Part shown: positions 16,465-21,292 of the stretch, piece by piece | Numbering within the stretch: position 1 is the first letter of the stretch | How the letters are laid out: every line of letters starts with the position of its first letter | Source of the DNA: a phage | Direction: 5' to 3' (one strand) | Length of the DNA: 64,000 nt | Sequence record: PZ386967.1 | Program-made: the position numbers and the translations under genes | Notes under the pieces: generated by a model | What the model was told of the DNA's origin: nothing | Databases searched by the model: none | What the model saw: only the letters and a program-made list of their open reading frames with translations

Positions 16465-17658
16465 ATGAACGTCAAAACATTCAATATTCCGATCGACAAT
16501 GAAGGGTTGGTAGTTGAGCGACTGAAGAAGCTCGAGCGCACTGCCGAAAGGTTGGGTGTTCCGTTTCCGACTGTGACTTATGGTGAACCCTTCAAAACCC
16601 ACACCCGCGACTTCACTGGTGAGATCCTTACTCACTGGTGGAAACCTGTTACTCTCGAAGGCGAAGGCATTGACCGCCCCGTCTCTTATGGTGGCTGGAA
16701 GATCATCGGTCAGTTCAATCACGAATATCCAAAGGTTATTCTTAACCGCCTGTCCGACAACATCAATCCTGACTTCATCCGTCACTTCGAGACAGAGAAC
16801 GTCTCTTGGTGTCAGCATTGCAATCTAGTCATCCGTCGCAAGAACACGTATGTGATTGAAAATGAGGAAACGCATACCCAGATGCTGATTGGTAGCACCT
16901 GTATGCATCATTATGTGCCTCATCAGAAGTCCCTTGACGCGATTATGTCTTACTATCTGGAAATCCAAGAGTTCTTCATGCCAGACGAGGACGACCCAGA
17001 GGGTATATATCGCGTCCAAAATGAGCGCTTCGTCGACACCCACAGTTTCCTGCGCGCATGCTTCCAGGTGATGCTAGCAGGCGTGGATATCAAGTCTGAA
17101 CTGTTTGACAAAGTACTGGGCTATGTCCGGTCTCATCAGAAACCAAAAGCAGGTTCCGATGAAGAGTATTTCGTAAACAAGGCACACGAATACCGTGAAG
17201 ATGCCGAGTCGGAAATGTACCATATGAAGCTTTTCATCAGTGCGCTGTCCGAATCTAATGAGTTCAATGTTCGCCTGAAACGCATGTGTGAACCCGGCTA
17301 TCACCTCATCAAGGATAACAACACAGTCCGCTGGGGTGCCAAGAAGTATTACGATTACATCCATCGTCCTCGTACTGACCGCAAGGCGGAGAACAAATGG
17401 GTGGGTGAAGTCGGTGAAATGCTGGAAGTGCAAGTCAGGTTCGACAAGCGCACCTTCCTCTTCTCCAATGAATATGGTGATAGCTACCTGTTTACTTTCA
17501 AAACAGCAGAAGGCAATACAATTACCTGGAAGACCTCTTATATGGATACAGAGTTCTTGCAGGGTGATATGATCATCCGTGGTCGTGTTAAAGAACTGAC
17601 TGAGTACAACGGCGTTAAACAAACTCAGGTCACCAGAGCTAAATTGAGGAAGTTATGA
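16465..17658 (+). CDS. hypothetical protein with Cys/His cluster (CQHCN...CMHH)
   Basis: ORF track 16432..17658 (TTG); ATG at 16465 has GAGG SD. Occupies the position where T4 has primase gp61, but no clear TOPRIM motifs were recognised. Confidence 0.4.
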   Translation: MNVKTFNIPIDNEGLVVERLKKLERTAERLGVPFPTVTYGEPFKTHTRDFTGEILTHWWKPVTLEGEGIDRPVSYGGWKIIGQFNHEYPKVILNRLSDNINPDFIRHFETENVSWCQHCNLVIRRKNTYVIENEETHTQMLIGSTCMHHYVPHQKSLDAIMSYYLEIQEFFMPDEDDPEGIYRVQNERFVDTHSFLRACFQVMLAGVDIKSELFDKVLGYVRSHQKPKAGSDEEYFVNKAHEYREDAESEMYHMKLFISALSESNEFNVRLKRMCEPGYHLIKDNNTVRWGAKKYYDYIHRPRTDRKAENKWVGEVGEMLEVQVRFDKRTFLFSNEYGDSYLFTFKTAEGNTITWKTSYMDTEFLQGDMIIRGRVKELTEYNGVKQTQVTRAKLRKL

Positions 17659-17767
17659 ATTTGATTGAGTTTGTTCTGAAGTCGTTCGCCTTCGGTCTGA
17701 TAGCATGTGGGATGATTACAGCTATGCTTCTCATCATAGCCCTGGTCATCCCCTTTAAGAGGAAACG

Positions 17768-17983
17768 TTGATGGAATGTTCATGCGGAGGGCAGGGCACA
17801 AGTGCTTACCTGCCATTCACCACTGTGAAGGAAGCCGAAGCCGCTGGATTTGCCGTGGACAAGGCTCCCTGTGTAATCGCCACGAAGGATTGCCCGTGCT
17901 GTAAGAGGCACTCTCAGGACGTCTTCTACGCTCCTGATGCGCGTCCGGCTACGGTCAACCTACTCTCATTGATGAGGAAGTGA
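17768..17983 (+). CDS. small Cys-rich protein (hypothetical)
   Basis: 71 aa with CSCGG...CPCC. Confidence 0.3.
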   Translation: MMECSCGGQGTSAYLPFTTVKEAEAAGFAVDKAPCVIATKDCPCCKRHSQDVFYAPDARPATVNLLSLMRK

Positions 17984-18160
17984 CATGCGCAAGTATTTCA
18001 ACTGGCTGTTGGCAAGCCCCTGAGCACCGAAATCCGTTGTCTGATAGATGCGATCGATGTTGAAATGGAATGGCGAGCGCCGGATTAATCGCACAAAGGC
18101 TCAGGCCGAAATTAAAATCGTGAAGAAGTCCACAAGGCTCTGGGTTTCATAACAAATAAT

Positions 18161-18186
18161 TCAATAAACTATTCACCCATATAATA
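18161..18186 (+). promoter_or_regulatory. TTCAAT-box / TATAAT promoter upstream of 18214
   Basis: AATTCAATAAAC, 14-nt spacer, TATAAT; GAAGGAA SD before ATG at 18214. Confidence 0.45.
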
Positions 18187-18213
18187 CATGGGAACTTACA
18201 GAAGGAACAGACC

Positions 18214-18555
18214 ATGACTACACTCGTAGAAACATTATTCCCAGGCTGCGTGCTTGGGCGCGGTGGATCCGAAGCCAACGGGCTACCGATTGACGTCGAA
18301 CCTCAGAACTGTGTTATTGTTGACAAGTTTCACGACAACCACTATGCCCTGAACAATCGTCGTGACCACTATCTTGTTTCCGTAGGAGATTCTTTGGTCA
18401 GTCTGCGCATCTGCAAGGCTATGCCAGGATCCGGCTATGGAGCATTCGCCTATATTCACAGCGTGTCAAATGACAAGCTGGGTAAAGAAGCCCTGGTTGA
18501 AAAATTCAAGAGTTGGAAGGATTCTTTCACCTCAATTGAACCCCCGAAGAAATAA
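18214..18555 (+). CDS. hypothetical protein
   Basis: 113-aa ORF. Confidence 0.4.
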   Translation: MTTLVETLFPGCVLGRGGSEANGLPIDVEPQNCVIVDKFHDNHYALNNRRDHYLVSVGDSLVSLRICKAMPGSGYGAFAYIHSVSNDKLGKEALVEKFKSWKDSFTSIEPPKK

Positions 18556-18572
18556 CTGAGGACTACACACTG

Positions 18573-19181
18573 ATGTCACTGAAAAACTTACTGAAACGCA
18601 TCTTCACCACTGTTGAAGCTAACGTCACCGCAGGTCTGGATAAACTGACCGACACCGAAAAGCGCCTGAACCTGGCTGCTCGCAAGCTGTCTGACGAAAT
18701 CCGTCGCCTGGAGGAAGCCCGTGTCACCAACGTCCGCAACGGCGTCAAGCTGAAGAAGACCGCAGAACAGAACCTAAGTGAAGCCGCCAAGCGCGAAGAA
18801 GTTCTGAAGGACGCCATCGCTCGTGGTGTCACACCAACCCGCGCCGACGCCCTGATTATTCTGCATCGCCGCCGTATCGGTGAAGCCCTGTTGGCTCAGG
18901 TGAAGGACATCGAAGCAAGCAGCGACAAACTGAACGGTGCGATCATCCAGCTGGGTGACAAACTGGACGAAGTCAAGTCCAATCTCGAGCTGGTTCGTGT
19001 TCAGAAAGAGACGAACGACCTGGGTCTGGTGCTCCCTGAAGATATCGATTATGCCGCTGGTATGACCACCATCGATATCGATGCCATCCTGCGCGAAACC
19101 GAAATCGCTGATTCGAGCTACTCCGCCAACAGCCCGTCGTCTATCGAAGCCGACAACTACCTCGCCAGCCTGAGCAAATAA
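18573..19181 (+). CDS. PspA/IM30-like coiled-coil protein (putative)
   Basis: N-terminal RIFTTVEANVTAGLDKLTDTEKRLNLAARKLSDEI resembles remembered PspA N-terminus ([23 protein letters not shown]...); about 200 aa, heptad-rich. Confidence 0.35.
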   Translation: MSLKNLLKRIFTTVEANVTAGLDKLTDTEKRLNLAARKLSDEIRRLEEARVTNVRNGVKLKKTAEQNLSEAAKREEVLKDAIARGVTPTRADALIILHRRRIGEALLAQVKDIEASSDKLNGAIIQLGDKLDEVKSNLELVRVQKETNDLGLVLPEDIDYAAGMTTIDIDAILRETEIADSSYSANSPSSIEADNYLASLSK

Positions 19182-19195
19182 CATCAGAGGGGCTT

Positions 19196-19756
19196 ATGCC
19201 CCTCTATCACTTCGGGGATCTTATGAACATTATTGATTCTTTCAACATACTCACTGGTGCTACTGCTTTCGTTCTTTTGTGTATTGGCAGTGCCTGGCTG
19301 AGAGGTCGACTGAAGAAACGGGAAGTCTTGAAGCGAGACCGTATTGACATCCACAAAATAATGCTGGATAGAACTTGCAAACATGGCCCCAGCGGTGACT
19401 TCCGTTTGTATTATTTGTCGGATGAAGTCACCCCTTCGGAATTCTTCAATTATGCGATGGCTGGGTTGCGATGGCCGGAGATAAACGGCGTTGTTCAGAA
19501 AACTGATTACGTGTACGTGAATATGGCTTCCCTGAACAAGCACGGGGAACGCGACGATCTGCGGATGTGGTTCTTTGGAGGAGAGGAACAAGAAGAGTTT
19601 GTAAAAGAACTTGCTCTCTTGCTTAACACGTACGAAAAGGCTGGTTGCCCACCACTCGAGGTGGAAGAATCAGTAGAATCTATCGTGGCTCGCGCTCGTG
19701 GTGAAACCGTGGATCTACTGAACAAATACGGCTTTGTCTGGGCGGAGGGTTCATGA
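19196..19756 (+). CDS. membrane-anchored protein (hypothetical)
   Basis: N-terminal TM helix (LTGATAFVLLCIGSAWL); follows the PspA-like gene. Confidence 0.4.
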   Translation: MPLYHFGDLMNIIDSFNILTGATAFVLLCIGSAWLRGRLKKREVLKRDRIDIHKIMLDRTCKHGPSGDFRLYYLSDEVTPSEFFNYAMAGLRWPEINGVVQKTDYVYVNMASLNKHGERDDLRMWFFGGEEQEEFVKELALLLNTYEKAGCPPLEVEESVESIVARARGETVDLLNKYGFVWAEGS

Positions 19757-19810
19757 TGGATACAGAAGTCATTATCAGCCAAGCAAGATCCCACACCCGC
19801 CAATAATCTA

Positions 19811-19832
19811 TTGAAGTCCCCAGGGTTATAAT
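19811..19832 (+). promoter_or_regulatory. TTGAAG-box / TATAAT promoter inside an 11-bp hairpin that also overlaps the ligase RBS
   Basis: CCAGGGTTATA...TATAACCCTGG stem (19820-19852); TATAAT at 19827-19832; GGAG of the SD lies in the 3' stem. Confidence 0.4.
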
Positions 19833-19861
19833 AGCAGCACATATAACCCTGGAGACACCGC

Positions 19862-21292
19862 ATGATCCCTATCCTTGAAACAGTCCGCCGACTTCGCGAA
19901 ACCAAAGGCAGCAATGCGAAGAAAGCCGTGCTGACCGAAGCATTCAAGAACAACCCAGACTTGGCAGACTTCCTGCAGTATGTCTATGACCCAATGACGT
20001 CGTTCTATCGGACTGAGTTGAAGCTCAGCGCGTACCCTCGCATGCTCGTCCGTGAGAAGACTGATGACATTAGCGAAGTCTATGGCGTCCTCGACCAGAT
20101 GGCGCAGCGCCTTGTCGGTGGCCAAAAGGCTGATGCCCTGTTGGCCTCTGTCGCCCTGAAGATGGATCCCCAATACCACGAACTCATTCAGATGATCCTA
20201 GACCGTGATATCAAGGCGGGTATCGCTGAGAAGGGCATCAATGCAGCGTTCAAAGCAGCGGGTGGCACAGGCCGACTGATCAACATCCTTCCGTATCATC
20301 GTTATGACAACATGACGATTGACCTGCTGAAGAAGATGGACTTCAAGCGTGGTGTCTACAGCCAGCTGAAGTCAGACGGTATGTTCGCCAACATCATATG
20401 TCGGTACAATAAAGAGCCTGAGATTCGCTCTCGATCCGGTTCCCTTATCGCAGGCGGTTCGGTTGACAACCTGTCACTGGTGTTCAAGGACATCATCTAC
20501 GATGCGGGGATTGGTGAGAGTGTGTTCCATGGTGAACTTCTCGTTGTTGACCTCAAGTCGAATACCATCCTGCCTCGTGCTGTCGGTAACGGTAAACTCA
20601 ACAGCGTGATTCAGACAGGAGAACCCCTAGAAGATCGTTATCGGGTGATCTACCGGGTGTGGGATGTTATCCCGTACGACAACTGGTTCAACGCCCAGCG
20701 CGTGGACACCCCGTATGAAACCCGCTTCGACATGATCATGCAAATGTTTTGTGAAGACGACGGTCTGGTTCAGGTTCAAGAAACCCGTGTTGTTCACTCA
20801 TTTGCCGAAGCCGTCGACCACTTCAAAGACGCGCTGGCTCGCAAAGAAGAAGGCACGATATGTAAGGCCGCAGACATGCCGTGGGAAGATGGTACTTCTT
20901 CTGAAGGTCTGAAGCTGAAGATGGAGGTTGAGTGTGACCTTGAAATCGTGGGCTTCAACGAGGCTGACAAGAAGGGTAAACACGCCAAGACTTTTGGCTC
21001 ACTGATTTGTAAAACTTCCGATGGCCTGCTTGTTGTTGGCGTATCAGGGATCTCAGATGAGCTGAGACGCCATATGTGGGAGAACCAGGGCGATTACATT
21101 GGCAAGATCGCCGCAGTGCTCTCCAATGGCGTACAGGACAAGACAGACGATGCGATGAAGTCTTTGTTCCTACCTCGCCTTGTAGAAGTCCGCATTGACA
21201 AGAAAGTGGCCAACACACTGGATGAAGTCTATGCGATACAGAAAGCGTACATCGAAAACATCGCATTCCTGTTGGAGAAGGGTAATGGGTGA
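19862..21292 (+). CDS. 30: ATP-dependent DNA ligase (T4 gp30-like)
   Basis: Adenylation motif I KxDG (SQLKSDGMF), 476 aa. Confidence 0.8.
   Translation: MIPILETVRRLRETKGSNAKKAVLTEAFKNNPDLADFLQYVYDPMTSFYRTELKLSAYPRMLVREKTDDISEVYGVLDQMAQRLVGGQKADALLASVALKMDPQYHELIQMILDRDIKAGIAEKGINAAFKAAGGTGRLINILPYHRYDNMTIDLLKKMDFKRGVYSQLKSDGMFANIICRYNKEPEIRSRSGSLIAGGSVDNLSLVFKDIIYDAGIGESVFHGELLVVDLKSNTILPRAVGNGKLNSVIQTGEPLEDRYRVIYRVWDVIPYDNWFNAQRVDTPYETRFDMIMQMFCEDDGLVQVQETRVVHSFAEAVDHFKDALARKEEGTICKAADMPWEDGTSSEGLKLKMEVECDLEIVGFNEADKKGKHAKTFGSLICKTSDGLLVVGVSGISDELRRHMWENQGDYIGKIAAVLSNGVQDKTDDAMKSLFLPRLVEVRIDKKVANTLDEVYAIQKAYIENIAFLLEKGNG

Follow-up and report, generated by a model that had tools for sequence, protein, structure and literature searches.

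Does a lytic phage carry its own version of a protein with which bacteria answer phage attack, and what would it gain from doing so? Proteins of the PspA family are the ESCRT-III superfamily's bacterial branch and are known as a host response to phage-inflicted and other envelope stress. The question is raised by a locus in phage record PZ386967.1, of which we analysed a stretch of 64,000 nucleotides (nt), hereafter the window. Here a gene for a 202-amino-acid (aa) protein (18573–19181, + strand) is followed on the same strand by a gene for a small membrane protein. The original prediction, made from the letters of the sequence, had seen in this region a product resembling PspA at its N-terminus, next to a protein with an N-terminal transmembrane (TM) helix. 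Our analysis leaves little doubt that the 202-aa protein belongs to the PspA/IM30 superfamily of bacterial ESCRT-III-like proteins, in a divergent and shortened form; what the pair of genes does for the phage is far less certain.

The 202-aa protein matches the Pfam family PF04012 (PspA_IM30) with an E-value of 4.9e-11 and 43.1 bits, above the gathering cut-off of 33.9, its residues 5–147 aligning with profile positions 1–144 of 220. The reversed sequence and two shuffles of the protein gave no PspA match in Pfam, and the hit is therefore not due to coiled-coil composition. The protein is 100% identical to that of Escherichia phage vB_EcoM-ZQ1, and a further protein from the Ackermannviridae branch (P0047, 42% identical) reaches the same profile in the same register at 35.1 bits. 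The matches of P0048, P0036, P0030, P0068, P0085 and the Margaery protein are in the same register and sub-threshold; only the Ackermannviridae branch (the 202-aa protein and P0047) passes the PF04012 cut-off unaided, T4 e.6 and the tested members from T4-like phages lying below it. A single-sequence search of solved structures retrieved PspA (4whe) only at E=8, which is uninformative, and we used profile searches instead, with one profile built from 24 Ackermannviridae homologues (A1) and another from 30 homologues of T4-like phages only (A2). Searched against all PDB sequences, A1 placed Vipp1/PspA chains first (E=0.005; positions 6–144 on chain residues 3–142), and with A2 the best matches were Synechocystis Vipp1 at E=6e-4 and PspA 4whe of E. 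coli at E=0.005, over residues 1 to about 146. The two profiles are 22% identical and align to each other with hhalign at 100% (E=4e-42). Two signatures stand out in their alignments to the structures: one in alpha0, where phage ANVTAGLDKLTDTEK faces Vipp1 SNLNDLVNKAEDPEK (A-N-[IV]-x-A-x-L-[DE]-K-x-x-D-x-[EQ]-K), and one at the hairpin tip, where phage AIARGVTPTRADAL faces ALQKGDENLARQAL (A-[IL]-x-[KR]-G...R-x-A-L). The AlphaFold2 model of the protein, compared with the PDB by Foldseek, gave Vipp1 chains as its top nine matches (probability 1.00, TM-score 0.49–0.59), at a sequence identity to PspA/Vipp1 of about 20%. The predicted PspA-like N-terminus is thus borne out at the level of Pfam, structure profiles and fold, and none of these searches led to a coiled-coil scaffold in its stead or came back without PspA.

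The model (predicted local distance difference test, pLDDT, 77.7 overall) consists mainly of a long helical hairpin, formed by alpha1 (residues 28–83, 56 residues) and alpha2/3 (residues 90–149, 60 residues) at pLDDT 86–97. Ahead of the hairpin, residues 2–19 have a hydrophobic moment of 0.47 and a net positive charge, and the alpha0 motif of the phage profiles aligns to alpha0 of Vipp1/PspA. The likeness to bacterial PspA, Vipp1 (IM30) and LiaH therefore comprises the alpha0 motif, an alpha1–alpha2/3 hairpin of the same length, the G...R-x-A-L tip and collinearity from residue 1 to about 146. The differences lie elsewhere: those proteins are cellular and of about 220–260 aa with alpha4 and alpha5, whereas the phage protein comes from lytic phages, ends after 202 aa with an acidic tail and falls far below the NCBIfam equivalog cut-offs for PspA (TIGR02977, 13.2 bits against 243) and LiaH (NF045984, 13.5 bits against 380). 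Its last 55 residues hold 10 Asp/Glu and 2 Lys/Arg. Two short conserved helices (169–176 and 190–201) are modelled in the tail (151–202), and the A1 alignment has the motifs LPEDIDY, IDVDAILRE and E-x-DNYLASL there, kept across the phage family and not in PspA. Judging from the model, this acidic, family-specific tail appears to stand in place of the long alpha4/alpha5, and its two helices could be shortened analogues of them. Other branches of the superfamily are more distant: there was no Pfam match to Snf7 (PF03357) at E<=1, Snf7 and CdvB2 structures gave weak fold matches in Foldseek (probability 0.25–0.35), and the open reading frame (ORF) list of the window has no AAA ATPase gene adjoining the 202-aa gene.

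Within the phage world the family is well defined. The 202-aa protein matches phrog_1203 with E=1.3e-66 over residues 4–201, T4 e.6 matches it with 8e-88, and hhalign of A1 against T4 e.6 gives 98.1% over 6–201, that is, over the whole length; the likeness to T4 e.6 thus comprises a full-length family match and the same C-terminal motifs. The orthologue in Shigella phage Ag3 is in fact annotated as 'e.6 conserved hypothetical protein'. By tblastn the family is found in 234 phage records, from Ackermannviridae and many Straboviridae, the latter including phages of Aeromonas, Citrobacter, Cronobacter, Enterobacter, Proteus, Serratia and others; a scan of IMG/VR gave only six loci, none adding to GenBank. 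In an exhaustive profile search of 1.84 billion representatives, 41 were retrieved, mostly of 195–209 aa, matched over nearly the full length and of phage type. One hit, to a 3868-aa metagenomic protein of giant adhesin-like type (P0064), was rejected as a false positive, its LGLTAPTDVDTAVG repeats matching the tail region of the profile 17 times. On this evidence phrog_1203 is an old, self-contained phage lineage and not a recent capture of a host gene. Other viruses likewise encode proteins of the ESCRT-III superfamily, among them the 229-aa 'PspA/IM30 family protein' of Acinetobacter phage vB_AbaM_ME3, Snf7 of Megaviridae and the pspA-like gene of the Jug jumbo phages, which is mentioned in one paper. 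These are full-length, canonical-looking proteins that resemble the 202-aa protein by fold only (Foldseek E about 0.02, 15–16% identity), and we therefore count them as separate acquisitions or lineages from phrog_1203. As to names already in use, a near-identical protein from a Salmonella assembly (NCBI) and one phage record (MT499896) carry 'PspA/IM30 family protein'. Homologues in Klebsiella phage UPM 2146 (UniProt A0A5Q2F7S5) and Kosakonia phage Kc304 (MZ348424) are labelled 'tail completion protein' or 'host specificity protein', labels that look like annotation errors.

The second question is whether the neighbouring membrane gene belongs with the first. The 2-kb stretch around both genes is 96.7% identical to vB_EcoM-ZQ1 (Ackermannviridae, Aglimvirinae) and about 94% identical to Ag3 (Agtrevirus), and the source phage of the window is a Vi1-like lytic member of the Ackermannviridae (Aglimvirinae, Agtrevirus-like). 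The genes, all on the + strand, run in the order UvsX, gp41 helicase, DsbA-like regulator, a conserved protein of about 400 aa, small ORFs, three ORFs, DNA ligase and gp59 loader. This order agrees with the vB_EcoM-ZQ1 and Ag3 records, and so places the locus in the replication-gene block of such a phage. The three ORFs within 18214–19756 are 18214–18555 (113 aa), 18573–19181 (202 aa) and 19196–19756 (186 aa as listed), and the latter two make up a cassette sitting at a fixed hot spot between the conserved 113-aa gene and the DNA ligase gene. By tblastn the membrane partner is present in 86 phage records, whose host genera are all enterobacterial (Salmonella, Klebsiella, Escherichia, Shigella, Enterobacter), and the PspA-like gene at an identity of at least 60% is present in 86 as well, Salmonella phages accounting for 43 in either case. 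Wherever a record was in both lists, the partner lay 20–40 nt downstream of the PspA-like gene on the same strand, the cases checked including Vi01, SFP10, SJ3, FEC14, ISTP3, May, KFM-TASP06 and Se-J. In LHE287 and PhiSH19 both genes are absent and the 113-aa gene directly abuts the ligase gene. Alignment across the LHE287 junction shows an indel that runs from the ATG of the PspA-like gene to about 11 nt past the stop codon of the partner (18573–19767, + strand), with GA(T/A)GTCA at both edges. Because of this adjacency, the matching counts and the joint absence with a clean junction, the two genes are one accessory unit, gained and lost together. The module can be larger, with three genes in Vi01 and five in Ag3, PhiSH19 lacking all of them. 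With GC contents of 0.548 and 0.476, where the window as a whole has 0.495, the cassette genes do not look clearly foreign.

The partner is a bitopic protein of the inner membrane. The listed ORF has a single hydrophobic stretch at residues 12–35 (Kyte-Doolittle 19-residue maximum 1.88), followed by RGRLKKREVLKRDR, in which seven Arg/Lys are clustered; its match to phrog_11433 'membrane protein' has E=3.2e-76 and covers residues 10–186, the Vi01 and IME250 homologues match the same PHROG, and the Ag3 orthologue has one TM helix by both Phobius and TMHMM. The TM helix expected in the downstream protein is thus well founded. In 12 of 12 homologues the first residue falls at the Met10 position of the listed ORF, where the phrog_11433 match also begins, and the upstream ATG at 19196 lies in the loop of a hairpin and reads as a spurious start; for these reasons the gene most likely begins at the ATG at 19223 and encodes 177 aa (19223–19756, + strand), and the start in the vB_EcoM-ZQ1 record would then be a mis-called one. 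From the charge pattern, by the positive-inside rule, the topology is predicted to be N-out/C-in, which would place a domain of about 140 residues in the cytoplasm, on the side of the membrane expected for a PspA-like protein. AlphaFold2 models the partner at a moderate pLDDT of 60.8 overall, with a core (68–150) at pLDDT 76–86 formed as a small beta-alpha-beta-beta-beta-alpha unit, and the C-terminal segment, ESIVARARGETVDLLNKYGFVW, is conserved. Searches in Pfam, NCBIfam and PADLOC gave no match for the partner, and its profile found only chance-level similarity in the PDB (PII proteins, E=0.06). Compared with its Vi01 orthologue the partner is 33.5% identical, against 83.7% for the PspA-like protein, and what is conserved is only a 'P-x-E-F/Y...G-L-x-W/Y-P' segment and the C-terminal 30 residues; the partner thus evolves far faster than the protein beside which it is encoded.

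The hairpin that contains the spurious start is a GC-rich stem-loop just 3' of the PspA-like stop codon (19185–19206, + strand; CAGAGGGGC-TTAT-GCCCCTCTA), with a fold energy of -20.2 kcal/mol (z=-2.4). Ag3 keeps the stem, with GAAA as its loop. A terminator scan reports the inverted repeat (19185/6–19206) as terminator-like sites on the - strand and does not support a + strand terminator; a possible role is that of an attenuator or RNA-stability element, which would set the ratio of the two products.

Known systems offer an analogy for such a pair. In LiaI–LiaH of Bacillus and PspB/PspC–PspA of enterobacteria, a small bitopic protein with a cytoplasmic soluble part is likewise encoded beside a PspA-family gene. 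The likeness is one of analogy only, since the phage partner resembles neither LiaI nor PspB/PspC nor any known family in sequence or fold, and its interaction with the PspA-like protein is putative; furthermore, no pspB, pspC, pspF or liaI/F/S/R genes adjoin the locus, the neighbours being phage replication genes and the novel membrane protein. The original prediction's comparison with PspA and its membrane partners is strengthened by the arrangement, in which the genes are strictly adjacent, agree in their record counts and are lost jointly; partners of the PspB/C/F type are absent.

How far does the pairing extend? The PspA-like gene of Serratia phage IME250 (Taipeivirus) is followed by an ORF of 177 aa (L006, 3146–3679) that starts with a TM helix and is homologous to the partner (phmmer 3e-12; phrog_11433 3e-21); GenBank annotates only its last 49 codons. 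Erwinia phage phiEa2809 has a 171-aa ORF with an N-terminal TM helix directly downstream of its PspA-like gene (L008, 3191–3706), an ORF absent from the GenBank annotation, and together with two metagenomic loci of Ackermannviridae type (L020, L021) it gives a series of N-terminal-TM proteins of 171–202 aa immediately downstream. At another locus (L012) a 229-aa protein of this kind lies immediately upstream, overlapping the PspA-like gene by ATGA, and in phiMAM1 the proteins beside the PspA-like gene are soluble. We considered homology between the partner and the TM proteins of phiEa2809 and L021, MAM_159/160 of phiMAM1 and T4 e.5, and found no support for it (among nine sequences phmmer gave E>=0.005, and hhalign a probability of <1%); these proteins are architectural analogues only. 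Likewise, no conserved TM neighbour was found in the T4-like phages CC2, Margaery and T4, and the 64-aa protein upstream in Pm5461 looks secreted or of lipoprotein type. Unlike the Ackermannviridae branch, the T4-like e.6 members thus lack a conserved membrane neighbour, and they often end at a terminator; on these comparisons the pairing of PspA-like protein and membrane partner is a feature of the Ackermannviridae branch and not of the e.6 family as a whole. In some T4-like phages soluble proteins of about 200 aa follow the e.6 homologue, as does T4 e.5 (L011, 63–671). Aeromonas phage CC2 has the paralogues gp183 and gp184 (L003, 4156–5429; phrog_16253), which are weakly linked (E=9e-4) to the family of T4 e.5 (phrog_2607), and there may be a separate e.6–e.5 pairing in Straboviridae.

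The bitopic proteins beside the PspA-like gene do have something in common, a C-terminal motif [DE]-x-[IL]-[IV]-x-x-A-[RK]-x-[RK]. It reads ESIVARARGE in the partner of the window (19223–19756), DLIVHNARKRRK, DHIVSKARGRRK and DIIISQARSRTRQ in Ag3 gp043, gp042 and gp041 (L001, 7689–8187), QIVDKARKRHGK in Vi01_044c (L013, 2198–2365) and RIVARARYERLK in a 56-aa ORF of IME250 (L006, 3664–3834). Further carriers are at L023 (541–819 and 1520–1723) and L012 (5315–6004) and in 70-aa ORFs of L021 and L008, the core varying among IVARAR, IVSKAR, IISQAR, IVDKAR and IIEQAR; soluble neighbours in phiMAM1 and phiEa2809 carry the motif too. In a relaxed form it is present in 10 of 30 N-terminal-TM ORFs at the hot spot and in 0 of the 37 other ORFs of this kind across the window (p=1e-4 by Fisher's test), in an automated count whose cases are not independent, some being paralogues. 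The small motif-bearing membrane proteins are filed in separate PHROGs, so that the link between them seems to have gone unrecognised so far. We hypothesise that the anchors, by their basic I-V-x-x-A-R helix at the C-terminus, and the PspA-like protein, by its acidic tail, form a docking pair, loosely comparable with eukaryotic ESCRT-III, whose partners are recruited through C-terminal peptide motifs.

What, then, might the module do? The reading that we prefer, and to which we give an even chance, is that of a phage-supplied, membrane-anchored guard of inner-membrane integrity. The original prediction had thought of a membrane-repair or remodelling factor that stabilises the host envelope during infection or times lysis, which is a plausible role. 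The module would be expressed with the early or middle replication genes, at a stage when the sigma-54-dependent psp operon of the host could no longer be induced. By means of alpha0 and the hairpin, the PspA-like protein would attach to the inner membrane from the cytoplasmic side, where it would oligomerise. LiaI recruits or activates LiaH, and PspB/C do so for PspA; the membrane partner would recruit or activate the phage protein in the same way, perhaps by contact between its basic C-terminal helix and the acidic tail. Such an assembly would limit proton leakage and keep up the proton-motive force until programmed lysis, protecting the infection from stresses that damage the membrane, among them depolarising abortive-infection effectors, the phage's own membrane proteins and superinfection. 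The patchy, optional distribution of the cassette and the fast evolution of the partner would fit a conditionally useful gene for counter-defence or host adaptation. A wider version of this idea, in which e.6/phrog_1203 proteins and motif-bearing bitopic proteins form a phage ESCRT-III-like membrane-protection system, with the motif docking onto the acidic tail and depolarising defences being neutralised, is one that we advance tentatively and consider rather doubtful.

Several observations weigh against a membrane guard. The relationship to PspA is remote, the exhaustive profile search having found no cellular PspA and no bridge sequences at E<=0.001. The likeness to PspA extends from alpha0 to alpha3 only, since alignments from both Pfam and the PDB end near residue 147, and within this part the alpha0 region (about 2–23) is modelled at low confidence, as helices 3–10 and 13–23 at pLDDT 33–39. 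Alpha4 and alpha5 lock PspA/Vipp1 polymers together; with these helices replaced, polymerisation of the 202-aa protein is only putative. The domain of the partner has no recognisable fold or family, Foldseek of its model against the PDB giving nothing above a TM-score of 0.26. Since the T4-like members lack a conserved membrane neighbour, the family as a whole can do without the partner. The cassette itself is dispensable, being missing from about 147 of 233 related phage records. A promoter and terminator scan of 17500–20000 gave no more sites than shuffled sequence and identified no promoter for the module; a TATAAT at 18180–18185 was rejected as a promoter because no properly spaced -35 element goes with it. 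Lastly, full-text literature searches found no paper that reports an experiment on the function of the family.

The alternative that survives best, unlikely as we judge it, is that the module serves the phage's own membrane events, such as the control of when the cell lyses or the holin is triggered, the exclusion of superinfecting phages, or the reshaping of membrane for assembly or replication sites, with the ESCRT-III-like protein bending or resealing the membrane at sites marked by the partner. PspA, Vipp1 and ESCRT-III proteins are described as remodelling membranes as well as protecting them, and in several T4-like phages the homologue belongs to the e (endolysin) region and has small membrane proteins such as T4 e.2–e.4 around it, the Pm5461 homologue lying near endolysin as well; the modules of Ag3 and Vi01 also contain extra small membrane proteins. 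However, in this phage as in all the Ackermannviridae the gene is surrounded by replication genes and not by lysis genes, and most close relatives lack the cassette and still lyse and assemble; sequence alone does not separate remodelling from protection. A regulatory role is a less probable alternative still. E. coli PspA is both an effector and, through its N-terminal helices, the anti-activator of PspF, and these helices are exactly the part conserved in the 202-aa protein, which could then act as a mimic that binds host PspF (or PspB/C) and silences or hijacks the phage-shock response without acting on lipid. The low identity to PspA/Vipp1 with no sign of a conserved PspF-binding surface, the occurrence of the family in Aeromonas phages among those of other hosts, and the obligatory membrane partner and conserved amphipathic alpha0, which point to the membrane, make this improbable, and lytic phages of this type would be expected to shut off host transcription anyway. 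Finally, that the protein is a generic two-helix coiled coil (scaffold, structural or DNA-associated) with a membrane gene as mere neighbour is very improbable and largely excluded: long helical hairpins do draw weak matches to many coiled-coil families (as seen with P0048), T4 e.6 alone has no Pfam PspA match and some homologues bear tail or host-specificity names, but the score above the curated Pfam cut-off with clean controls, the convergence of two independent subfamily profiles on Vipp1/PspA in one N-terminal register, the nine best fold matches, all of them Vipp1, the early/replication-block location and the exact indel boundaries common to both genes all speak against it.

The reading as a membrane guard has a forerunner in the literature. 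Gendre et al. (2022, Int J Mol Sci 23:8917; PMC9409062) identified Gp_125 of the Salmonella phage SeF3a, a Kuttervirus protein of phrog_1203, as a PspA homologue by HHpred against pdb70, noted its presence in only 4 of 15 Kutterviruses and proposed a novel anti-abortive-infection device that preserves the proton-motive force, the passages available from that paper reporting no experiment on it. Gp_125 is an orthologue of the 202-aa protein, and SeF3a also holds the membrane partner (tblastn); the available passages mention neither this partner nor the cassette structure, the T4 e.6 link or the C-terminal differences. A conditional counter-defence function agrees with their proposal as those passages set it out. 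In our full-text searches phage PspA proteins of this family were discussed in that paper only, nothing was found on T4 e.6, and members encoded by phages are not discussed in the passages searched in reviews and surveys on how Psp and ESCRT-III evolved. Both the homology of phrog_1203 to PspA and the anti-abortive-infection idea were thus known before; as far as can be told, the obligatory membrane partner, the shared C-terminal I-V-x-x-A-R motif and the family-specific acidic C-tail in place of alpha4/alpha5 are new. What we add is the anatomy of the module and not the discovery of the homologue: the extent of the two-gene cassette, a corrected start for the partner gene, confirmation of the PspA homology across the family (T4 e.6) with controls, the divergent C-terminus and the shared motif.

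The surroundings of the cassette call for a few further remarks. The 113-aa ORF (18214–18555, + strand; phrog_5022, no Pfam match) marks the left edge of the insertion hot spot. It is present in 233 phage records with or without the cassette, and has a weak match in the Xanthomonas jumbo phage Xoo-sp13. It lies outside the cassette, being kept in relatives that lack the other two genes; the span originally proposed (18214–19756) thus rightly took in both genes on the + strand and began too early, with this unrelated ORF. PADLOC defence models matched none of the three ORFs. Just 5' of the ligase start, at 19820–19852, we spotted by eye only an 11-bp perfect inverted repeat, CCAGGGTTATA...TATAACCCTGG, which holds a TATAAT, overlaps a GGAG ribosome-binding site and recurs unchanged in LHE287; possibly it forms a hairpin that regulates the ligase gene.

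Taken together, the locus is not ordinary housekeeping: the phage itself carries a trimmed PspA with its own membrane anchor, as an optional cassette. Among the Kuttervirus, Agtrevirus and Taipeivirus phages considered for therapy, host range may be affected by whether the cassette is there, and the link to T4 e.6 makes its function testable in the best-developed system of phage genetics. Should the module indeed keep the membrane energised, it would represent a counter-defence of a new type, directed at the many abortive-infection systems which act by depolarising the membrane, and would provide a natural minimal ESCRT-III-like protein, reduced to alpha0 to alpha3 and a short tail, for mechanistic study. 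If the wider ESCRT-III-like protection system outlined above exists, homologues of the phage shock protein would be a weapon of phage counter-defence, with T4 e.6 as a ready genetic handle.

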